DNA of 63,880 bases, the filler included, from an uncultured Acidimicrobiia bacterium (GTDB lineage: Bacteria; Actinomycetota; Acidimicrobiia; Spongiisociales; JAOTWH01): assembly GCA_964347285.1 (NCBI GenBank). It is 8 parts of 8 records of this genome, joined end to end, with 100 filler letters (N's around TTAATTAATTAA, not from the genome) between each part and the next. Parts side by side here need not be neighbours in the genome. Positions count along the whole stretch, not along the records: positions 17,662 to 26,180 come from CAYFYE010000098.1; 7 more parts are not named here. One strand, 5' to 3'. The position numbers were made by a program, and so were the translations under genes. Positions 4,305-26,280 of the stretch are shown here, in pieces (positions within the stretch are counted from its first letter, which is position 1; every line of letters starts with the position of its first letter). The notes under the pieces are model-generated. The model did not search any database. It was not told the DNA's origin and saw only the letters and a program-made list of their open reading frames with translations.

Positions 4305-4510
4305 CCGATGATGGCCGCGCCGATGCTCCCGCGTACAGGCTGATCCCCGGTCCACCCTCATGGCGGAGGCTCGGGCCGGAGTGGCGCCGACGCACTTGCC
4401 GACCGGGGCCATCCCGCCCTCTGAGCGATCGCTGGTACCCACGAACGGCATCGATCTTGCGGTCCATGCCGGCCCACCGCCCCGATGGCGGCACCCCGTG
4501 ATGACGGTCG
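4305..4510 (-). pseudogene. Decayed copy of the 5' part of the oxidoreductase alpha gene
   Basis: GTACAGGCTGATCCCCGGTCC at 4333-4353 is identical to 1393-1413; flanks match 1364-1480 with substitutions and deletions. Confidence 0.82.
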
Positions 4511-4548
4511 CCGAATGGAAACACACGACCGGGTGAGAGAATCCACCG

Positions 4549-5685
4549 GTGTTCGGACCCGCCCGCCTCCTATACGCCTTCCGCCCCCGGGCGCCGCTCG
4601 GGATCTTGACCGGTGCCGCCGCAGTGGGGACGATGTACGTTGCCACCCCGTTTCTCATCCCGGAGATCTCTACTCGCTACGGCGTTTCCGAGGGACTGGC
4701 GGGCGCGATATCGGTGGCTCAGGTGGGCGCATTCGCCGCCGCCAACTTCCTACTCCCCCGGCTGGTAGCCCCTTCGGGTGGGCTACTGCGAGCTTCGGCC
4801 GCTGCCCTCGTCCTTGCCAACGCCCTCAGTGCCCTGACCGGCACGTTCTGGCTTCTGGTGGCGCTCCGGGTGGGAGCGGGCGTGGCTGCCGGGGCGATCA
4901 CCTGGGTGGCATGGGACGACGCCATGCGGCAGCCTCACTCGCTGGCTGCAGTGGCGGCCGCCGGGCCGGTCACGGCTCTCGTCGCAGCACCAGTTCTGGC
5001 CGCGGTTGCCGAGTCGGGAGACCGGGCCGTCTACCTCACGCTGGCCCTCGCCACCGTCCCCGCCGCGCTTCTTCCCGTTACCACGTCCGGCCTCGGTTCG
5101 CGAGAGGGGAGCGTCAGCCGTTCCCGGTCCAATCGCGTCCTGCTGGCCGCGCTGTTCCTGCTCACTTTCGCCGGATCCGGCCTGTTCGTCTACCAGGCGG
5201 TGGCGGCCCGCGAGGTCCTGGACTTGAGCCCCGTCGTCACCTCTTTCGCTTTCAGCCTCAACTCGGCCGGTGGGCTGCTGGGGGCACGACTCTCGGCCCG
5301 CCACCGTCGGCCGGGATGGTGGCTGGCCTCGGCCGGGCCGGCCGCCTATCTCACCATCGGCGGCGGCCACCCGGCGTTCTTCTTCCTGGGAATGGCGTGG
5401 TGGGGGTTCGCCTTCTGGATGGGAGTGCCGGGGGTGCTGCAGATGCTGGCGGCGAGATCTCTCGAACCGGGCGAGCGGGCCGGGGATGCTCAGGGTCTCA
5501 TGGCGGTAGGCCGTGCCCTGGGGCCGGCGCTGGGGGGCGGTCTGGCCGATACCGGGGCCTACACCGCGATGGCGGCCGTGGCCGGAGTGGGAATCTCGTC
5601 GGCGGGCATCACGGTGATCGGAGTGCAGGAGGGACGTGATCGCCTCCCGCCCACCGATCCCCGCACGATTCGGCCGCAGCCGTGA
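4549..5685 (+). CDS. MFS-like membrane transporter
   Basis: 378 aa with about 11-12 hydrophobic segments and MFS-like spacing (LVALRVGAGVAAG; GRALGPALGG). Confidence 0.75.
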   Translation: MFGPARLLYAFRPRAPLGILTGAAAVGTMYVATPFLIPEISTRYGVSEGLAGAISVAQVGAFAAANFLLPRLVAPSGGLLRASAAALVLANALSALTGTFWLLVALRVGAGVAAGAITWVAWDDAMRQPHSLAAVAAAGPVTALVAAPVLAAVAESGDRAVYLTLALATVPAALLPVTTSGLGSREGSVSRSRSNRVLLAALFLLTFAGSGLFVYQAVAAREVLDLSPVVTSFAFSLNSAGGLLGARLSARHRRPGWWLASAGPAAYLTIGGGHPAFFFLGMAWWGFAFWMGVPGVLQMLAARSLEPGERAGDAQGLMAVGRALGPALGGGLADTGAYTAMAAVAGVGISSAGITVIGVQEGRDRLPPTDPRTIRPQP

Positions 5686-8787: not shown

Positions 8788-8887
8788 NNNNNNNNNNNNN
8801 NNNNNNNNNNNNNNNNNNNNNNNNNNNNNNNTTAATTAATTAANNNNNNNNNNNNNNNNNNNNNNNNNNNNNNNNNNNNNNNNNNNN
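8788..8887. other. Artificial contig linker
   Basis: N44-TTAATTAATTAA-N44 with stops in all six frames. Confidence 0.99.
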
Positions 8888-17561: not shown

Positions 17562-17661
17562 NNNNNNNNNNNNNNNNNNNNNNNNNNNNNNNNNNNNNNN
17601 NNNNNTTAATTAATTAANNNNNNNNNNNNNNNNNNNNNNNNNNNNNNNNNNNNNNNNNNNN
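17562..17661. other. Artificial contig linker
   Basis: N44-TTAATTAATTAA-N44. Confidence 0.99.
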
Positions 17662-20510
17662 GAGTCGTTCTGAGCCACCGGGGCGTCGTTGACGGCGGTG
17701 ACGGTCAGAGTGACGGTGGCGGTATCCCAACCCCCGGCGCCGTCGCTGGCGGTGTAGGTGAAGGAGTCGATTCCCTCGAAGTGGGGGTTCGGGATGTACG
17801 TTAACGAGCCGTCGGGGGCAAGCGATACCGCGCCGTTGGCCGCCCCACTGGCAATCGACGCTGCGAGCGGATCCCCATCCACATCGGTGTCGTTGCCGAG
17901 AACCCCCGGCGCGGGCACCACCAGCGGCGATTCTTCCTGTGTCGTATAGGAGTCACTGCCCGCCTTGGGGGCATCGTTGGTCGGTTTCACCGTGATGGTT
18001 ACAGCGACCGTCGCGGATCCCCCTCGGCCGTCGCTCACCGTGTAGTCGAACGAGTCGGTCCCGTTGTAGTCGGGCGCCGGTGTGTATTGGAGGCTGCCCA
18101 GGGCAACCGTGCCGCCCGCACTCGTGATTGCGTCGAATGAAGCCACAACCAGCGGATCCCCGTCGGGATCGGTGGCGCCGGCCAGTGGATCGAAACTGAC
18201 CATTGTGTCCTCGTCCGTCGTGAGCGGTCCCGGTCCCGGTACCACTGGCGGAGCGTTCACCTCGACGACGTCGACGGTGACGGTGACCACGACCGTGGTC
18301 GATCCGTCGGAGACGGAGTAGCTGAACGCGTCGCTTCCGACGAAGTGGGCGGTCGGGGCGTAGGTGATGGTGCTATCGCCGTGTTTGGTGATCGTGGCGC
18401 CTTCGGCGCTCATTGCCGGCGCCGCCACGGTGAGCGAATCACCGTCGGCATCGAATGCGCCTTGGAGGGCGTTGAAAGTGAAAGTGCCATCCTCGGGCAC
18501 GACGATCGACCCGGGCCCGGGCACGACCGGAGCATCGTTCACCGGGGTCACCGTGACCGACACCGCGGCGGTACCGCATTCGGCGCCGGCGTCGCACAGC
18601 GTGTACGTGAACTCGTCCATGCCGTTGTAGTCGGGGTCGGGTGTGAACGTGACCGTTCCGTTGGTGTTGGGTGCGGCCTTCCCGTTGGCCGGCCCGACGA
18701 CTATCCGCAAACTGCCGAAATCGAGGAGGCCCTCGAGATCGACGTCGTTGCTGGCGACGGCGATTGCCGCTTGGGCGTCCTCTTTCACCGTCGCTGTATC
18801 GTCGGCGAGGTCGGGTGGGTCGTTGACCGGGGTGACCTCGATGCTCACCCGTGCCGTTGCGGTGTTGCCGTACACGTCGTCCACTGCGTACATGAAGCCA
18901 TCCCGCCCCGAGAAGTCGGACGCCGGGGCGTAGGTGATCGTCCCCGACCGGGAAGCAACGACTGCCGCGCCGTTCGGGGGAGCAACGGTCATCCTCAGCG
19001 AGGCGCGATCCAGGTCGCCGCCGTCGTTGCCCAGGACATCCACCGTGATGCGACCGTCTTCGGGAACCGAGGCGGCGTCGTCGACGGCAACTGCATGCGC
19101 ACCGGGGGTCACCTCGACCGATACGTCGGCCACACCCAGCACCTGCCCCCTCTTGCTCACCGCATAGGTGAAGGAATCAGTGCCGTAGAAGCCCGGATTG
19201 GGCACGTAGGTGACGGTCCCGTCCGTGTTGATGACCACGGTCCCGAATTCGGGTCCGTCGACTATCGACACCACGGCCCCGTCGACCACCTGGTCGTTGG
19301 CGAGGACGGAGATCGTGGTCGCCCGGCCCTCCACCGTCGCACCGCTGTCGGCGGCAACCATGTACTCGACGACGACCGGCTCGGGCTCTGGGACGATGGG
19401 CTCGTCGGGGATGTTGAGGATGCCGGCCCCCACCACTCCGGCGGCCGCAGTAGCCGCAAGCCCGGCCACGCCCACGGTTGTGCCGATCTGCTGCACAGCG
19501 CCTACGAAGTTGAGGAACGGCAGCTGGGCCAGCCAGGACAGCGGACCGGCCACCCAGCGGAGCCGTCCCACCGACAGGCTGAGGAAGGCCCGGACGACGC
19601 CAGCGTCGAACTGGGCACCGGCGTGGCGGGCCAGCTCCTCGCGCGCCATGGCAGCCGGCACTGGTTTCTTGTACGAGCGCACGGTCGTCATCACGTCGTA
19701 GGCATCGGCGACACAGACGATGCGGCCGCCGAGGGAGATCTCCTCACCCTTCTTCCCGGCCGGGTAGCCGGCGCCATCCCAGCGCTCGTGGTGGTCGGGG
19801 ATCGTGGCCGCCCAGTCCCCCAGCCACTCCATCAGCGGAGCGCAGATGTCGGCACCGAAGACCGGATGCTTGCGAACGACCTCCCACTCGTCGTCGTCGA
19901 GCCGCCCCGGCTTGTTCAGGATCTCGGCCGGGATCTTCAGCTTGCCGATGTCGTGCAGCAGCGAGGCCCACCGCAGCTTGGCCCGGCCCTCCTCAGCGAC
20001 GCCCATCTCCTCGGCGAGCATCTCGGTGTAAGCCCGCACCCGTTCCGCATGGCCACGGGTGCGCCGGTCGTGGGAGTTGAGAGCATTCGACAGCTGGAGG
20101 ATGAAGGCGGCCGCCTCGGTGGGGTCGTCCTGGAGACCTTTCTCCTCAGCCTTCTTTAGCTGAGCTTTGAGATGCTTGACCGACGAGCCGCTCTTGAGAG
20201 CGGTGCTGAAGCGTCGCGGCGCCCGGTCGGGAAAGACCATCGTCAGCTGCATCAGGGCCGCCAGAGGCAGAAGACGTCGCGCGCCCCGGTCGACCACGAA
20301 GAGCACCGTGGTCGACACCGCAATGATGAGCAGCCACCACCCCAAGAGCGTCCACAGCGTCGAGGGGGTGGGCAGCGCCTTGCTCAGCCAGATCGAGGCC
20401 CCGATCGATGTCATGATCGGAACGATGAAGACCGAGGTTCGAACGATGAAGGCAAGCACCGGCCGCCCTTGCCAACGGCCGGCACCTTCCGATGCCGGTT
20501 CTCTGCCCAT
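17662..20510 (-). CDS. Membrane HD-GYP phosphodiesterase fused to at least 6 cadherin-like/Big_9 Ig repeats (3' partial)
   Basis: N-terminal TMs; HDRRTRGH, LLHDIGK, HHERWDGAGYP and ADAYDVMT..RSY; hydrophobic linker; repeats VNDAP..EDG..ND.D..TYTP..GTDSFTY. Confidence 0.9.
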
Positions 20511-20637
20511 GGCACCTCGACGAGTGTTGCTGCGCAGCAGGGTCCGGCGGTGCCGGACTAGACACCGATGCCATCGGCTAATGGGGAGCCGAACTTGAAG
20601 CAGTTGAACCGGGGAGTCGACCCCTTCCCGGCACCGC

Positions 20638-21873
20638 TCAAGGACGTGGACCGATCTCCACGAGTCGCTCGATGGCCCGGTAGGCCCTCTCCGAGAAGTC
20701 GGGGTCGTCGGGATCCAGCAAGTTGGCCATCACCTTCAACACGAACTCCATCGCAGGTCGCACCCGCATCCCGGCCCGCGTGAGCGATCGCATCACGCTC
20801 GGCGTCCCGATGAGCCGCAGAAAGGCTCGAGCCACCCCGTTGTACGCCTCGTAAGTATCGGCCAGCTCCTGGGCGTAGCCGTGGAGACGGCTGAGATCAC
20901 CGGTGCCCAGGGCCGCCGAGATGTGGGCGGCGGCCATCCGTCCCGTCTCGTAGGCGTAGTCGATTCCTTCCCCGGTGAACGGGTTGATCGCCCCGACGGC
21001 ATCGCCGACCAGCAGCCAATTGGGCCCGACCTTGGGCCCCACCGAAAGTGACATCGGGAGCTTGCCCCCCCTGGGCTCGGTGAGGGCCGACTGCGCCGTG
21101 ATCTCCCAATAGTCGGGCAGGGTGGCGACGAGCAACTCCATGAGACTGGAGGTATTGATGTCCTTCCACCCTTTGAAGGTGGACATGACTCCCACCCCCA
21201 CATTCACCGTGCCGTCGCCGAGCGGGAACAGCCATCCGTAACCGGCCACCGATCGGCCGGCCTGATCGGGGATGCCCAGGTGGCTCTCGAGGTACTGGTC
21301 GTTCGACCGGGGGGTGGAGAAGTAGCCCCTGGCAGCCAGCCCGTACGGAAGGCTCCGGTCGCGGTAGACGCCCAGCGCCCGTCCGAAGCGGGACAGCGAT
21401 CCATCGGCGATCACCACGATTTCGGGCTCGACGCGCTCGATCTCTTCGCCATCCACGAGGTCGACTGCGGTCAGGACGCCTTCCTCGATCACCGGGCGGG
21501 CCTCGGTGCGCTGGCGCACCACCGCACCCTGCTTCTCGGCGAGGCCGACCACCCGGCCGTCGAGGTCGGCTCGCCTGATCACCCCGCCCCAGGACGGGAA
21601 GCGGGAATGCTCCGGCCAGGGCAGCTCGAGCATCAGGTCCCCCGCATAGGCCCGCAGCCCGACGATGCGGTGAAACTCGGGAAGCGAGAAATCGAAGCCC
21701 ATTTCGGTCAGCTCGTAGATGGCGCGCGGGGTGAGTCCGTCGCCGCAGACTTTGGGGCGCGGGAACTCTTTCTTCTCGACGACCACCACCCCATGCCCGT
21801 TGCGGGCCAGCCAGTAGGCGGCAGCGGCTCCGCCGGGGCCGGCGCCGACCACCAGGACTTCAGGGGAGGGCAT
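20638..21873 (-). CDS. Geranylgeranyl reductase family FAD oxidoreductase (MenJ-like)
   Basis: VVGAGPGG, FPRPKVCGDGLTPRA, GYGWLFP and GDAVGAINPFTGEGI. Confidence 0.9.
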   Translation of the reverse strand: MPSPEVLVVGAGPGGAAAAYWLARNGHGVVVVEKKEFPRPKVCGDGLTPRAIYELTEMGFDFSLPEFHRIVGLRAYAGDLMLELPWPEHSRFPSWGGVIRRADLDGRVVGLAEKQGAVVRQRTEARPVIEEGVLTAVDLVDGEEIERVEPEIVVIADGSLSRFGRALGVYRDRSLPYGLAARGYFSTPRSNDQYLESHLGIPDQAGRSVAGYGWLFPLGDGTVNVGVGVMSTFKGWKDINTSSLMELLVATLPDYWEITAQSALTEPRGGKLPMSLSVGPKVGPNWLLVGDAVGAINPFTGEGIDYAYETGRMAAAHISAALGTGDLSRLHGYAQELADTYEAYNGVARAFLRLIGTPSVMRSLTRAGMRVRPAMEFVLKVMANLLDPDDPDFSERAYRAIERLVEIGPRP

Positions 21874-21910
21874 GGTCGGAGGCTACCGCCGGAGTCGGCC
21901 TACCCCAGGC

Positions 21911-22825
21911 TCAGGGAGCGGCGGCGGTCATCTCGCCCTCGCCCTCTCCGGCGCCGATCTCCAGGAGCCCGCATTCCTCTTCGGCAGAGGCCAGGTCCTG
22001 ACCGCCGTGGCTCACCCGCTCGAAGAGCACCACCGAGCCCAGCTCCTCTTCGGACAGCGTGTCGCCGAAGGCCGGCATTTGGGCACCGCTCCCGCCCAGC
22101 GGCTTGGCTGTGGCTCCATAGGTCGGCTCCGGCCAGCCCAGCGTGCCCACCCGCACCCATTCGACGTGATCGGTGCACGAGCCCTCCGGGAACGTGACCA
22201 ACACCTCACCTCCGGCCAGGGCGGGGAAGTTCCCGCCCCCCTGACCCTCGGAGCCGTGGCAGGCCGAGCAGATCGACCCGTAGATCTCCTCACCTATGGC
22301 CAAGAAGTTCAGGGACTCCTCGCCGAATGCCGTGCCGTCGCAATTGACCGCCTCTCCGGTGGCCGGGTCGACCAGGAGCTGAGCGCCGACTCCGCATTCG
22401 GGGCCGTTGGGGAAGAACAGGGCATAGAAGAGGGCGATCGCCGGCACGATCATGAACGTCGCCGCCAGCCAGGCAGGGATGGCCAGGGGCCGAGCGGCCT
22501 CCTCCGGCTCTTCGGGAATCTCCTCGGGCTCCTCCTCCTCCACCCACGGGGCCTCGGGGGCGAGCACCTCGACCTCCGGTCCGGCGGGCTCGGCCGGGGC
22601 GGCGGGCTCGGCCGGGGCGGCGGGGGGCGCCGCGGCTTCCTCGGCCGCCTCGGCGGGGGCTGCTTCGGCGGGTGCTGCCGCGGCGATCTCGCCTCCTCCG
22701 GCCCAGGCGGTCAGCACCGCCTCCACCGGGACGCCGTCGGCAGCCGCTCGGGCCCGGGCAGAGCGCTCGACCATTCCCGGAGGGAACCCCAGCACCTCGG
22801 CCGCTCTTTCAACCAGCTCTTCCAA
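21911..22825 (-). CDS. Membrane-anchored monoheme cytochrome c
   Basis: Helical N-domain, Ala/Pro/Glu linker, one TM, then CSACH and distal QMPAFG. Confidence 0.88.
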   Translation of the reverse strand: MEELVERAAEVLGFPPGMVERSARARAAADGVPVEAVLTAWAGGGEIAAAAPAEAAPAEAAEEAAAPPAAPAEPAAPAEPAGPEVEVLAPEAPWVEEEEPEEIPEEPEEAARPLAIPAWLAATFMIVPAIALFYALFFPNGPECGVGAQLLVDPATGEAVNCDGTAFGEESLNFLAIGEEIYGSICSACHGSEGQGGGNFPALAGGEVLVTFPEGSCTDHVEWVRVGTLGWPEPTYGATAKPLGGSGAQMPAFGDTLSEEELGSVVLFERVSHGGQDLASAEEECGLLEIGAGEGEGEMTAAAP

Positions 22826-22835
22826 GGCGGCGCTC

Positions 22836-24752
22836 CTATTCCAGAGCGGACACGTACAGGCCGACCGCAGTGAGGTCGGCGTCGCTCAGGTAGTCGTAGG
22901 ACGGCATGATCGACCAGGACCGGGCCCCCGGGCCGGTGCGCGGCGAGCGGAGGTGGGCAATGACCCAGGTCGCCTCATCGGTCGGGCTGCGCGCCCCCGC
23001 ATGGGTGAGATCGGGGCCGATACGCACCGACCCCAACAAGGGTGGGACCTCCAGCGCGTAATCCCCGGGCAGGGACACGGGCCCGAGGTCCACGTCGGTG
23101 ATGATCGGGCGGACTTGCTGGGTGTGGCAGTACATGCACCCTTCGCGCACATAGACGTCTCGCCCCACGGCTTCCACCGATCCCGATGCGAAGTCGAGCA
23201 CTTCGGCTCGGGCCGTGGGCCGGCGATGTGAGATCTCGAGGGACGGAATCAAGAAGACGGCTACTGCGGCCAGGACGAACAGGCCCACCGCCCCTCGCAC
23301 CACCGTGACGGTCGGGATGGGACGGGCCGGTTCCGCGTTGGAATCCGGCGGTTCCTCGACGGGACCCCGGACGGCGGATTCCTCTGGTTCGGTTGCGCCC
23401 CGTCTCATCGCAACCATCAGCCCGAACAGAACCTGGGCGCCCAGCACCACGACCAAACCGACGGCGGCAACGACATGCCAGGCCCCCATGGGCTCCACCG
23501 AGTTGATGAACCCCTGGCCGACCGACGCCACCCCCTCGGAACGGGCGTCGGCGAGCCATGTGAACCCCTGCTGTAAGCCGGCCGCCGACTCGGCCACCAA
23601 CGCCAGGCCCAGCCCGACGATCGTGAACCACCAGTGGGCGCGGGCCACCGGGACCGCCCCCGGTGCCCAGGCCTGGTAGACGAAAGCGAACAACCACATC
23701 GAGGCCACCCCGAGGATCACCAGCAACTCGAAGGCGACCTTCCACCCGGTGAACTGGACGACGGCGCTGGGAGACCGCAGCGCCTCCACCAGGTTCGCCA
23801 CCGGCAGAAGTGCCAGAAAGCAGGCGCCGGTGACCAGGAAGCGCCGGGCCGCCGATGCCGGCCCAGAGACGGCGCCCCGCAACGAGCCGGCCAGATCACT
23901 CACCACCGCCCACAGGGGCACGACCAGAACGAAGGAGAAGACGATGGCCACGGTCTCCAGCCAATCGGGTAGCGGTCCGAACACCCCGAACCGGGGGGCG
24001 ATCCAGGCGGTGACGAATGCGAACGACCAAAAGGCGATCTGGCTCACCCTGGTACCGAGCGGACCACGCCCGGAGACCCGGCCCGCCACGTAGTAGGCCA
24101 GTCCGATGGCGGCTCCCACCAACCCCAGCAGCGCCAAGGCGGTGAACCCGAACCAGTACTGGAGCGCCGAGTTGACCCCCCTTAGTCCGGGAACGGCGCC
24201 GGCCAGGAGGGCCAGCGGAACCCACCACACCGCCGCAACCAGGAACCACTGGGCGGCCGCCGACGATCCCTCGTCCTCCCTCATGGTCCTGGTCACGATG
24301 TAGGCCGAGACGAAGAACGAGAGCGTGACCACCACGTCCGACCACCACGGCAGCTCGAAGAAGGGGAGGCCCTGATTGCCTCCGGCGGCCACGGCAACGA
24401 TGCCGGCCAGCAAGCCCGAGGCTCCCAGGACGAGGTTGGCCCGGGCCAGCGGTTCCTTCCACAGCCTGAGCCCGCCCAACCGGGGAATGACGTAGTAGGC
24501 CGCCCCCACCAAACCGAGGCCCAGCCAGCCCAGAAGAAGCGCATTGGTGGCCACCGGGCGGACCCGGCCGAAGCTCAAGAACGCGGTGCCGCCCAAGAAC
24601 TGCGGCCACACCATCTGGACGGCGTTGACGGAAGCCGCCAGCAGGCCCAGGACCAGGAAACCGATGGCGACCGCGACATGGGCCCTGGCAGCGGAGTCGG
24701 AAGGGACGGTCGGCGCGTCCGTACCATCGCCCGGTTGGGCTATTGAGGTCAC
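22836..24752 (-). CDS. CcoN-like membrane scaffold lacking metal-ligand His, fused to a CcoO/FixO-type cytochrome c
   Basis: CcoN-like landmarks LSFGRVRP, AYYVIPRL, GPLPDWL and VQFTGW; C-terminal GRDVYVREGCMYCHTQQVRP...GSVRIGPDL...SIMPSY. GTG start at 24752 with GGAGGAG RBS. Confidence 0.85.
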   Translation of the reverse strand: MTSIAQPGDGTDAPTVPSDSAARAHVAVAIGFLVLGLLAASVNAVQMVWPQFLGGTAFLSFGRVRPVATNALLLGWLGLGLVGAAYYVIPRLGGLRLWKEPLARANLVLGASGLLAGIVAVAAGGNQGLPFFELPWWSDVVVTLSFFVSAYIVTRTMREDEGSSAAAQWFLVAAVWWVPLALLAGAVPGLRGVNSALQYWFGFTALALLGLVGAAIGLAYYVAGRVSGRGPLGTRVSQIAFWSFAFVTAWIAPRFGVFGPLPDWLETVAIVFSFVLVVPLWAVVSDLAGSLRGAVSGPASAARRFLVTGACFLALLPVANLVEALRSPSAVVQFTGWKVAFELLVILGVASMWLFAFVYQAWAPGAVPVARAHWWFTIVGLGLALVAESAAGLQQGFTWLADARSEGVASVGQGFINSVEPMGAWHVVAAVGLVVVLGAQVLFGLMVAMRRGATEPEESAVRGPVEEPPDSNAEPARPIPTVTVVRGAVGLFVLAAVAVFLIPSLEISHRRPTARAEVLDFASGSVEAVGRDVYVREGCMYCHTQQVRPIITDVDLGPVSLPGDYALEVPPLLGSVRIGPDLTHAGARSPTDEATWVIAHLRSPRTGPGARSWSIMPSYDYLSDADLTAVGLYVSALE

Positions 24753-24921
24753 GTCGGCCCGCTCCTCCCACTCATCGACGGGTGCCCCGAGACCGCCTCC
24801 GGCCCGGCGCGGCGCCGCATTGTCCTCGGTGATCGGGTAATCGTCAAAGCTCACTGCACGGCAGTTTCTTGCGGCCGGCACGCCACTTACAATGTGCCGC
24901 CGCTGCCCCTAGGAAGAGCCG

Positions 24922-25509
24922 GTGGACGACGTACAGCGCAGACGCCTCGGTGTGGTGGGCCTGGTTGCGGGCCTCCTGGTGTTCACCCTGGGATGGCTGG
25001 CCGCCCACTTCACCGGGCTCCCCGAGCAGAACTCGGTGGGCCAGGACATCTACCCGGCCATACCGCGCGGGTGGCAGTGGGTGACGCTGTCCAAGATCGT
25101 GGCCCTCATCGGCGGCCAGATCGCCATGGCCGCGGTCGTGGTGGGGTGGTTGTGGGAACGGCCGATGACCTGGGCCCGGGCCAGCGTCGGGGCGCTCCTG
25201 TTCTCCCTCGAGATCCTCATCGTCTTCGCCTTCATACCCAACGAATGGTTGGGCCTGACCCAGGGCGAATTCGAATGGACCTCCCAGAAGATCGCATTCA
25301 CGATCCCTCCGTGGCTGGTGCTCAACAACACCGTGGAGATCAGCTATGGAGCAATCAAGGACGTGGTCTCGGGTACGTACAGTGCCGTAGCCCTCGGGGC
25401 GCTGCTGGTGATCGTCTATCAGGTGCAAGAACGCGGCAAGAAGAAGGCCGCAGAGCCGCCGATCAAGCTCTCCGACTACGGGCGGCCGATGGTGAGGGGG
25501 GGCCGGTAG
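24922..25509 (+). CDS. Conserved hypothetical membrane protein upstream of the ferredoxin and cytochrome b genes
   Basis: About 4 TMs; motifs RPMTWARA, FIPNEWL and LSDYGRPM; abuts the ferredoxin gene. Confidence 0.78.
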   Translation: MDDVQRRRLGVVGLVAGLLVFTLGWLAAHFTGLPEQNSVGQDIYPAIPRGWQWVTLSKIVALIGGQIAMAAVVVGWLWERPMTWARASVGALLFSLEILIVFAFIPNEWLGLTQGEFEWTSQKIAFTIPPWLVLNNTVEISYGAIKDVVSGTYSAVALGALLVIVYQVQERGKKKAAEPPIKLSDYGRPMVRGGR

Positions 25510-25956
25510 ATGGCAAAGGCCGATGTCTGGTTCGAAACCCCGCCGTTTCGTGACGATTACCAGCTGGTCGAGGTCGACGGCGAATACTTGAAGACGGCGG
25601 TCAAGCCGAAACAGTTCCTCCACATCGACCAGGCGGAGTGCATTCTGTGCGAGGGCTGCGTCGACATCTGCCCGTGGAAGTGCATCCACTACCTCTCCGT
25701 CGAGGCGATCGCCGAAGCGACCAACACGGTCGACCCCGGCGCCGACGCCGAGGCGAAAGGGATCTTCGTGGTCGACGAAGACGAGTGCACTCGCTGTGCG
25801 CTGTGCATCGACCGGTGCCCAACCGGCGTGATCACCCTCGGCAAGTTCGAGGGGTCGCTGGCCGACCAGGTGGTGCAGGCCGGCTTGGCACCGTGGGAGA
25901 CCGACACCGGCCAGCGTGATTTCAAGAACGGGTACGCCTACGGCATGCGGTGGTGA
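25510..25956 (+). CDS. 2[4Fe-4S] dicluster ferredoxin-like protein
   Basis: CILCEGCVDICP and CTRCALCIDRCP. Confidence 0.93.
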   Translation: MAKADVWFETPPFRDDYQLVEVDGEYLKTAVKPKQFLHIDQAECILCEGCVDICPWKCIHYLSVEAIAEATNTVDPGADAEAKGIFVVDEDECTRCALCIDRCPTGVITLGKFEGSLADQVVQAGLAPWETDTGQRDFKNGYAYGMRW

Positions 25957-25960
25957 CGCA

Positions 25961-26180
25961 TTGACAGACGGCAACGGAGCGGGGAACGGAAGGATCAGAC
26001 TGCGGGAGCGCCTGTCGGAGGCGGCCGGCCGGGTGCGCTCCAGTCAGGTGTGGTCGAGCGTGTTCCGGCCCGGCTCACCGTTCCGGGAGGGGTACGCCGA
26101 CAGCCCCCGCAACCGCTCGTACGTGATCATGAACAACGTGCTGTATCACCTCCACCCGGTGAAGGTGAAGCGGCACGGCG
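25961..26180 (+). CDS. Cytochrome b (b6-like) N-terminus (3' partial)
   Basis: VWSSVFR...DSPRNRSYVIMNNVLYHLHPVKVKRH, resembling the N-terminal extension of bc-complex cytochrome b in this clade. Confidence 0.68.
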
Positions 26181-26280
26181 NNNNNNNNNNNNNNNNNNNN
26201 NNNNNNNNNNNNNNNNNNNNNNNNTTAATTAATTAANNNNNNNNNNNNNNNNNNNNNNNNNNNNNNNNNNNNNNNNNNNN
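26181..26280. other. Artificial contig linker
   Basis: N44-TTAATTAATTAA-N44. Confidence 0.99.

Follow-up and report, generated by a model that had tools for sequence, protein, structure and literature searches.

Within a 63,880-nucleotide stretch of DNA (the window) from the genome of an uncultured Acidimicrobiia bacterium (GenBank assembly GCA_964347285.1), we analysed a gene that encodes a fusion of the cbb3 cytochrome c oxidase subunits CcoN and CcoO and that lacks, in its CcoN-like part, all six canonical histidine ligands of haem and copper. The window joins eight contigs of this metagenome-assembled genome (MAG), C96, C97, C98, C99, C101, C102, C103 and C142, end to end with 100-base spacers; features crossing a spacer (8788-8887, 17562-17661, 26181-26280, etc.) are artefacts, and the true genomic context of the fusion gene is contig C98 alone (window positions 17662-26180). 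The MAG comprises 2.63 Mb in 187 contigs and is 90.5% complete.

The fusion gene lies on the minus strand at 22836..24752, with a GTG start and its stop codon at 22836-22838, and encodes a protein of 638 amino acids (aa). While the longest open reading frame (ORF) at the site runs further upstream (22836..24881, minus strand, 681 aa), GTG 24752 is the probable start, as it fits the N termini of homologues and is preceded, 11 nt upstream, by a GGAGG ribosome-binding site (24764-24768, minus strand). Pfam recognizes COX1 (114.2 bits, cut-off 34.8) followed by FixO/CcoO (84.1 bits, cut-off 29.6) in the translation. On the NCBIfam models, the protein scores far below the family cut-offs: the closest, fused cbb3 subunit I/II (PRK14485), gives 230.7 against a cut-off of 1080, the ccoN equivalog TIGR00780 gives 119.7 against 583.15, and the CcoO equivalog gives 73.3 against 200.65.

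The CcoN-like membrane domain spans residues 20-449 (23406..24695, minus strand) and has 12 helices according to alignment with solved structures, an AlphaFold2 (AF2) model and Foldseek. Residue correspondences were taken from a HMMER alignment to the solved CcoN chains 9g6b_A, 6xkw_n and 3mk7_A (E values of 2e-25 to 2e-21, with 1.6e-21 for 3mk7_A from Pseudomonas stutzeri). In this alignment, the segments FGRLRPLHTNA, QWWYGHNAVGF, YIWAGPHHLHY and WTIGHVHAG of 3mk7_A correspond to FGRVRPVATNA, QYWFGFTALAL, TAWIAPRFGVF and WKVAFELLV of the fusion protein, respectively. Thus, none of the six histidines expected of a C-family oxidase (two for haem b, one for haem b3 and three for CuB) is kept; in the 638-aa numbering and with all codons checked, they are replaced by A68 (24549-24551), F203 (24144-24146), R254 (23991-23993), F255 (23988-23990), F341 (23730-23732) and L343 (23724-23726), all on the minus strand. 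Also gone is the helix 7 tyrosine six residues before the histidine pair, the partner in the His-Tyr cross-link of cbb3 oxidases, whose position is taken by A249 (24006-24008, minus strand; YIWAGPHH vs TAWIAPRF). In the usual numbering of the 3MK7 literature, the canonical residues at these sites are H60, H207, Y251, H257, H258, H345 and H347.

By its subunit I profile and 12-helix fold, the protein is a member of the haem-copper superfamily. It is not a cytochrome c-dependent nitric oxide (NO) reductase (cNOR), which would carry three histidines and a glutamate for FeB and histidines for its two haems: the same six histidine columns are empty, and the NO reductase chains 4xyd_A and 3o0r_B were weaker Foldseek fold matches than the cbb3 chains. 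A CcoN-like domain without the six histidines would therefore be unable to reduce oxygen.

The CcoO part of the fusion has kept its cofactor site. Behind a low-confidence linker, the AF2 model places a thirteenth transmembrane helix that resembles the CcoO anchor (residues 481-501; 23250..23312, minus strand; assigned by DSSP), and this is followed by a CcoO-type monohaem cytochrome c domain (residues 526-638; 22839..23177, minus strand; Pfam FixO, with matches to 6xkw_o, 8smr_F and 3mk7_B). Membrane helix, monohaem c domain, CxxCH and methionine, the features of a CcoO subunit, are therefore all present. The domain retains C539-x-x-C542-H543 (23124-23138, minus strand), a GPDL motif and M616 (22905-22907, minus strand) as the candidate methionine ligand; in an alignment of 35 fused homologues, C539, C542 and H543 are invariant and M616 is nearly so. 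The original prediction had described an intact CcoN-CcoO frame of about 638 aa behind a strong ribosome-binding site, with every canonical ligand position of CcoN substituted and with CxxCH, GPDL and the distal methionine of CcoO in place. All of this was borne out, the ligand loss by three solved CcoN chains rather than the P. stutzeri chain alone.

The fold itself appears to have survived the loss of the ligands. Using a 35-row alignment, AF2 modelled the fusion protein with a predicted local distance difference test (pLDDT) score of 88.6 and a predicted template-modelling (pTM) score of 0.92, as twelve helices, a poorly predicted linker, the thirteenth helix and the cytochrome c domain. 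The best Foldseek matches of this model in the PDB are cbb3 CcoN chains (probability 1.00, target-normalised TM-score 0.83-0.87, root-mean-square deviation 2.7-3.1 Å, 20-23% identity). In addition, the domain is under purifying selection. Ratios of nonsynonymous to synonymous substitutions (dN/dS; Nei-Gojobori method, NG86) were 0.07-0.20 for the N domain in 13 His-less pairs, compared with 0.05 and 0.12 in two canonical pairs; several pairs had dS >1, which makes the estimate rough, and the three closest pairs (dS 0.1-0.7) gave 0.14-0.20. For the CcoO domain, dN/dS was 0.02-0.17.

Conservation within the N domain is of a structural kind. The positions conserved in the His-less clade are glycine, proline, tryptophan, arginine and tyrosine residues common to canonical CcoN, whereas conservation in this clade does not extend to the polar residues (E, T, Tyr, N and a second Y) that reach 92% or more in the canonical rows. 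Moreover, no new clade-specific conserved polar, histidine, methionine, lysine or cysteine residue was found in the N domain in the clade alignment. The loss of the canonical polar residues without replacement argues against an alternative ligand set as well as against the canonical proton path, and it speaks against the original suggestion that the protein might serve as an ion or proton conduit. One pattern at the former ligand sites did emerge: in 67 of 97 fused rows, an arginine or lysine at one of the three former CuB columns pairs with an aspartate or glutamate between the two former helix-10 ligands. When relatedness is allowed for, 11 independent pairs remain, with 4.7 on average pointing the same way, none pointing the opposite way and a median p of 0.06. 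We regard this possible salt bridge as a lead, since in independent pairs the co-occurrence is only a trend.

How widespread are such proteins? A scan of one genome per prokaryote species with a 5-row alignment returned 576 related stretches, the best 80 of which we examined. Among these 80 loci, 65 keep at most one of the six histidines, almost all of them titled Acidimicrobiia or Actinomycetota, while 14 keep all ligands and one is too partial to call. Because these 14 loci retain every ligand within the same alignment, the ligand columns can be trusted. The canonical loci stem from Dehalococcoidia, Anaerolineae, Bacteroidota, Ignavibacteriota, Brocadiaceae and Bacillota, with one labelled Eubacteriales and one Caldilineaceae. 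As for the 65 His-poor loci, L054 is incomplete, and L044 and L052 are read in two frames, so that the N and O parts of L052 may be separate genes. Three loci in MAGs titled Kiloniellaceae or Gammaproteobacteria (L012, L040 and L058) carry the Acidimicrobiia-type His-less gene, L012 and L040 with the full gene cluster; here the contigs were probably mis-binned, or the bins mislabelled.

When 1.84 billion representative proteins were searched exhaustively with a profile, 4993 matched at E<=1e-3 and 464 at E<=1e-30. Together with the genome scan, this overturned the impression of a rare family that a word-based search, with 8 proteins, had given. Taking the proteins with a full N domain among the 150 matches listed, plus the word-search matches, we obtained 128 rows, of which 76 have none of the ligand histidines, 9 have one, 18 have two to four, and 25 have five or six; this sample is biased to His-less forms because the profile was built from His-less proteins. 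Hence, the proposed search for His-less homologues uncovered a large conserved clade, and with it the view that the gene is not decaying is strengthened by three observations: the intact frame, the size of the clade and the low dN/dS.

In a FastTree phylogeny, the query falls on the 73-row side of a branch with a support of 99, where 69 rows have no ligand histidine and four have one. With the ligand columns removed, a quick IQ-TREE analysis (LG+C20) placed the query in a set of 31 rows, all His-poor, with a Shimodaira-Hasegawa-like approximate likelihood ratio (SH-aLRT) support of 97. A single origin of all His-poor proteins was rejected by the approximately unbiased (AU) test: forcing the 35 rows together lowered the log likelihood by 259.7 (p-AU 4.9e-39). 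We therefore conclude that there is one main clade, plus separate ligand losses outside it. The distribution of the fusion protein within the class is narrow. In an even sample of 301 genomes of the class, 47 contain a match at E<=1e-30, and 46 of these 47 belong to the MAG's own order. Not all members are fused; N-only His-less forms with a separate CcoO gene also exist.

A second group of proteins stood out in the same data, namely long CcoN-CcoO fusions of 680-930 aa that keep one to four of the six histidines (P0084, P0088, P0090, P0101, P0103, P0108, P0110, P0118, P0122, P0128, P0132, P0143, P0146, P0149 and P0157). Often it is the histidines of haem b (two) and haem b3 (one) that remain and those of CuB that are gone; the proteins branch with canonical enzymes, outside the main His-less clade. 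These fusions may be copper-free haem proteins of another kind.

Directly downstream of the fusion gene lies a gene for a membrane-anchored monohaem cytochrome c of 304 aa (21911..22825, minus strand; Pfam Cytochrome_CBB3, 34.7 bits). Its conserved N-terminal domain (45 aa) is joined by a linker rich in Pro, Ala and Glu to a single transmembrane helix, beyond which lies a CxxCH domain with Met250. Of 55 fused His-less loci, 50 have such a gene after the fusion gene. We modelled the complex of the fusion protein with residues 108-292 of this cytochrome (the transmembrane helix and haem domain), supplying alignments for both. The predicted interface reached a median score of 0.63, the best of three controls 0.00; for comparison, 116 of 157 solved complexes and 2 of 215 mismatched pairs score this high. 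Across runs, at least 79% of the contacts were common, and the partner's pLDDT was at least 79. In the model, the transmembrane helix of the cytochrome packs against the His-less domain (residues 258-285, 326-330 and 400-406), and the cytochrome's Cys-rich segment packs against the CcoO domain. The suggestion that the emptied CcoN might act as a scaffold or membrane anchor gains support from this modelled interface. Regarding the N-terminal domain of the cytochrome, R21, A23, A25, R26, E35, W41 and G43 are invariant in 23 rows, with residues 46-110 forming the linker; judging from the sequence, this conserved 45-residue domain would sit on the cytoplasmic side.

Next in the same direction is a gene for a flavin adenine dinucleotide (FAD) protein of the geranylgeranyl-reductase family (20638..21873, minus strand; 411 aa; TIGR02032, 212.6 bits, cut-off 158.8). 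It is MenJ-like, scoring 293.5 bits on the MenJ model, below the cut-off of 700, and it is found in 43 of 55 fused His-less loci.

On the other side, an operon diverges from the fusion gene. Its first gene, p195, encodes a hydrophobic protein of 195 aa (24922..25509, plus strand; G+C content at third codon positions, GC3, 0.88) that is likely a multi-pass membrane protein and falls into no described family. An NCBIfam search with p195 gave no match, its homologue at locus L010 gave a weak DUF7139 match (25.1 bits, cut-off 30), and its neighbours in a protein atlas are Actinomycetota 'hypothetical protein' clusters. The second gene encodes a 148-aa ferredoxin with two CxxCxxCxxxCP motifs (25510..25956, plus strand; Pfam Fer4 families). 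The third, a cytochrome b6 gene, is truncated where the contig stops, so that only its 5′ part is present here (25946..26180, plus strand); we identified it by tblastn with operon proteins of L010 and L006. According to tblastn and Pfam, the rest of the operon forms the start of another contig, C60, and encodes cytochrome b6, a PetD-like protein, a Rieske protein, a 495-aa two-domain cytochrome c and a 178-aa protein. The L010 homologue of the b6 protein passes the NCBIfam model for ExtP-type cytochrome b, NF040969 (304.9 bits against 290). The ExtP name, which refers to a Geobacter selenite/tellurite reduction operon, is probably too narrow, and the complex looks like the main quinol-oxidising complex of Acidimicrobiia.

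This arrangement is conserved, as the original prediction of a respiratory gene cluster would lead one to expect. Among the 55 fused His-less loci, p195 is present in 48, the ferredoxin gene in 47 and the later operon genes in 40 to 47, loci running out; the seven without the divergent operon have at most 941 bases upstream. The operon also accompanies five of six unfused His-less loci, and adjacency to b6 is visible for the N-only forms as well. At canonical loci, p195 was found in 0 of 11 and cytochrome b6 in 1 of 11. On the other hand, ExtP-type cytochrome b6 occurs in 281 of the 301 genomes of the class sample (233 above the NCBIfam cut-off). Since the complex is class-wide and the His-less gene is present in 47 of these 301 genomes, the dead oxidase is best viewed as an order-level addition that settled beside the Rieske/b6/ferredoxin complex. 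Calling it a 'new system' was thus an overstatement; it is an add-on of one order to a class-wide Rieske/cytochrome b6 complex.

Two further ORFs were considered at this locus and discarded. A 376-aa ORF (24844..25974, minus strand), a candidate for the upstream gene, is an antisense shadow of two plus-strand genes: it is without a family match, its translation is rich in Arg, Gly, His and Asp, and GC3 and conservation favour the plus strand. Another ORF, 17610..20510, spans an inter-contig spacer and is cut at the contig end. Its genuine part (17664-20510, minus strand) encodes a large protein that oddly combines a cytoplasmic signalling domain, of the HD/HD-GYP type and near the N terminus, with repeats of a kind typical of the cell surface, namely six or more that resemble Big_9/cadherin. 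Matches to the ORF turned up in 11 of the 80 loci. At L010 and L070, open frames of 1854-1910 codons, which may be relatives, lie 3′ of the reductase gene. On C60, a Rex-like redox-sensing regulator (CoA_binding plus Put_DNA-bind_N; 4317-5000, minus strand) sits right after the Rieske/b6 operon on the opposite strand; beyond the operon, a Pfam search of this contig showed this regulator and unrelated genes, with no oxidase genes.

The genome carries other, intact oxidases. It was proposed to check for a separate catalytic subunit I of a haem-copper oxidase, and we found three, all complete in their histidines: two CtaD-type genes, with TIGR02891 scores of 657.6 and 650.1 bits for the matched part, and a divergent one (L003, C2:64505-65842) that scores only 121 bits on the CtaD model but has all histidine motifs and HPxxY. 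In the MAG's own genome, the fusion gene is the only FixO match, and neither FixH (CcoH) nor FixS (CcoS) was matched in this 90.5% complete MAG; ccoG and ccoI were not searched. ResB was not found in the genome either; two Cytochrom_C_asm genes are present, which makes attachment of haem c plausible. Counting another ferredoxin-cytochrome b6-PetD set (C147) and a pair of Rieske and cytochrome b genes (C7), the genome has three Rieske/cytochrome b-type loci.

What might a conserved oxidase subunit without cofactor ligands be doing? We think it probable, if far from certain, that the fusion protein is a redox-dead membrane platform that bears its own CcoO-type haem c and docks the monohaem cytochrome c of the next gene. 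Under this proposal, the CcoN-like domain would keep its predicted 12-helix fold without haem b, haem b3 or CuB, and the protein would contribute the CcoO haem c while holding the neighbour's cytochrome. The unit of dead oxidase and cytochrome c would sit with, or next to, the divergently encoded Rieske/cytochrome b6/ferredoxin complex, such that electrons could be relayed from that complex's cytochrome c towards the real A-family oxidases. Because the carriers are taken to be single-membraned, like actinobacteria, a freely diffusing cytochrome c would be unusable to them.

More speculatively, and here we see a possibility rather than a likelihood, the haem- and copper-free CcoN could stand in the place of a terminal oxidase as the organising core of a so far unseen supercomplex beside the ferredoxin-bearing Rieske/b6 complex, in this one Acidimicrobiia order. 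It would hold two c-type cytochromes that pass electrons to the separate A-family oxidases or to another acceptor, and its emptied pockets would be stapled by the pair of Arg and Asp/Glu or used for a ligand such as menaquinone.

Several points weigh against the platform proposal. The former haem pockets could house unusual ligands, or lipid or quinone, in ways to which sequence is blind. The link between the fusion protein and the Rieske/b6 complex is suggested by a shared promoter region and synteny only, and the protein cannot be an obligatory b6 subunit, as the complex occurs without the His-less gene in most of the class. The good score of the modelled complex may reflect likeness to known assemblies instead of binding in its own right, because CcoN-O-P complexes are solved; and the missing ccoH and ccoS are weak evidence, given a MAG that is 90.5% complete. 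Finally, the 12-helix domain equals real oxidases in its low dN/dS, a constraint that seems stronger than anchoring alone would require. Along with the N-only forms, this constraint implies that the membrane part does something specific, and hints at a function that we cannot yet name.

The alternative that fares best, albeit an unlikely one in our estimation, holds that the fusion protein is a membrane-anchored cytochrome c carrier, with the dead CcoN as a large anchor, and is co-regulated with the Rieske/b6 operon without being bound to the complex. The high conservation of CxxCH and Met, the fact that the O domain has the lowest dN/dS (0.02-0.17) and the class-wide occurrence of the Rieske/b6 complex without a His-less gene all fit such a carrier. 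Yet a single helix would suffice as an anchor and is already present at residues 481-501, and the 12 helices of the N domain are under purifying selection no weaker than that on canonical oxidases. That some members have the N part alone, with CcoO encoded by a separate gene, further indicates that the N part is retained for its own sake.

The strong constraint on the membrane domain could be accounted for if the emptied CcoN had gained a new membrane activity, for instance the binding of menaquinol or lipid in the haem pockets or ion conduction, with the haem c reporting to the site or drawing from it. The basic/acidic pairing at former ligand columns (67 of 97 fused rows) and the conserved neighbouring gene for a menaquinone-reductase-like protein would suit this idea, which we nevertheless consider distinctly doubtful: the N domain shows no conserved polar, His, Met, Lys or Cys residue specific to the clade, the conserved positions are the shared structural G/P/W/R/Y, the canonical polar residues are lost, and the link between arginine and acid is a trend only (11 independent pairs, median p 0.06).

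It is very improbable that the protein binds haem or metal through ligands other than histidine and works as a new type of catalytic oxidase or NO reductase. Other haem-copper families have indeed changed single ligands, according to a 2021 survey (bioRxiv 10.1101/2021.10.15.464467), but here all six have changed, and differently between sub-clades (A/G/S/F; F/A/R/E/V; R/A/H; F/N/E/T; F/V/Y/T; L/Q/V), which is unlike a conserved alternative ligand set; CcoH and CcoS, too, are without a match in this genome. A decaying pseudogene, or an artefact of assembly or binning, might be suspected in a MAG fragmented into 187 contigs, but we give it next to no credence, as dozens of other species share an intact frame with this MAG, some of them on complete or megabase-scale contigs, dN/dS is 0.07-0.20 and synteny is conserved.

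With regard to the original prediction as a whole, the gene is indeed not decaying, the genome has separate oxidases, the cluster is conserved, database names do mislead and the scaffold option is favoured; the conduit and the claim of novelty for the entire system did not hold up.

The redox-dead platform that we propose shares features with several known systems. Closest are the cbb3 oxidases with CcoN, CcoO and CcoP (P. stutzeri 3MK7/5DJQ) and the natural CcoN-CcoO fusions (PRK14485). Homology to these is full-length, the predicted 12+1 helices are topped by a cytochrome c domain, CxxCH and Met of CcoO are retained, and a further membrane-anchored cytochrome c is encoded adjacently, its helix being modelled on the CcoN-like domain. 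Unlike cbb3 oxidases, the fusion protein lacks the six histidines and the cross-link tyrosine, falls far short of the family cut-offs and forms a separate clade; its partner cytochrome has one haem where CcoP has two, and no ccoH or ccoS match was seen in this genome.

The combination of a cbb3-type module with Rieske/cytochrome b proteins recalls the bc1-cbb3 supercomplexes (Rhodobacter capsulatus 6XKW, P. aeruginosa 8SMR, alphaproteobacterial 9G83), which are also the best sequence and fold matches. There, however, the cbb3 is a working terminal oxidase, which it cannot be here; the presumed partner here is a split b6-type (ExtP-like) complex with a ferredoxin gene, the association being suggested by gene linkage. 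The obligate bcc-aa3 supercomplex of Corynebacterium and Mycobacterium is an actinobacterial way of doing without a soluble cytochrome c, in that c haems bound to the membrane connect the quinol oxidase complex to the terminal oxidase; the bridge in that case is the dihaem QcrC itself, and no dead oxidase subunit is known to be involved. Inactive enzyme relatives do serve as structural parts elsewhere: Core 1/2 of mitochondrial complex III are inactive relatives of the matrix processing peptidase. Their fold and family are unrelated to those of the fusion protein, and the likeness is one of principle only.

Altered active sites within the haem-copper superfamily are not without precedent. The 2021 survey (Murali, Hemp et al., bioRxiv 10.1101/2021.10.15.464467) describes active-site histidines as fully conserved in all haem-copper families except gNOR, where one is replaced, and reports Met or Lys on the low-spin haem of nNOR/eNOR. 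Like gNOR and the other recently defined families, the fusion protein belongs to the same superfamily, has an altered active site, was found by sequence mining and is often mis-annotated; unlike in gNOR, all six residues are gone, haem ligands included. A full-text literature search, with subscription journals outside its coverage, found no description of a His-less CcoN.

The databases, for their part, treat these proteins as ordinary oxidases. NCBI and JGI list members as 'cbb3-type cytochrome c oxidase subunit I', 'subunit II', 'subunit I/II' or 'c-type cytochrome', just as the original prediction had anticipated that automated annotation would mislabel the gene as an active cbb3 oxidase. 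This matters because metagenome papers infer high-affinity, low-oxygen respiration of Acidimicrobiia from cbb3 calls. In one such report, for example, cbb3 oxidases are listed for MAGs 3, 4, 6, 8, 9 and 10, of which at least 3, 4, 6 and 8 are Acidimicrobiia (PMC8357290). Wherever the sole 'cbb3' is a His-less protein, the inference would be wrong.

The haem-copper superfamily is usually treated as being defined by its invariant histidines, and the His-less clade contradicts that. A large clade under selection without any of the six histidines shows that the fold can persist in a role other than catalysis. If the emptied CcoN is in truth the core of a supercomplex, the haem-copper oxidase superfamily would gain its first branch without a catalytic function. 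For the carriers themselves, a group that is abundant in sediments and waters, mostly uncultured and taken to be single-membraned, the findings point to an undescribed arrangement of the respiratory chain.

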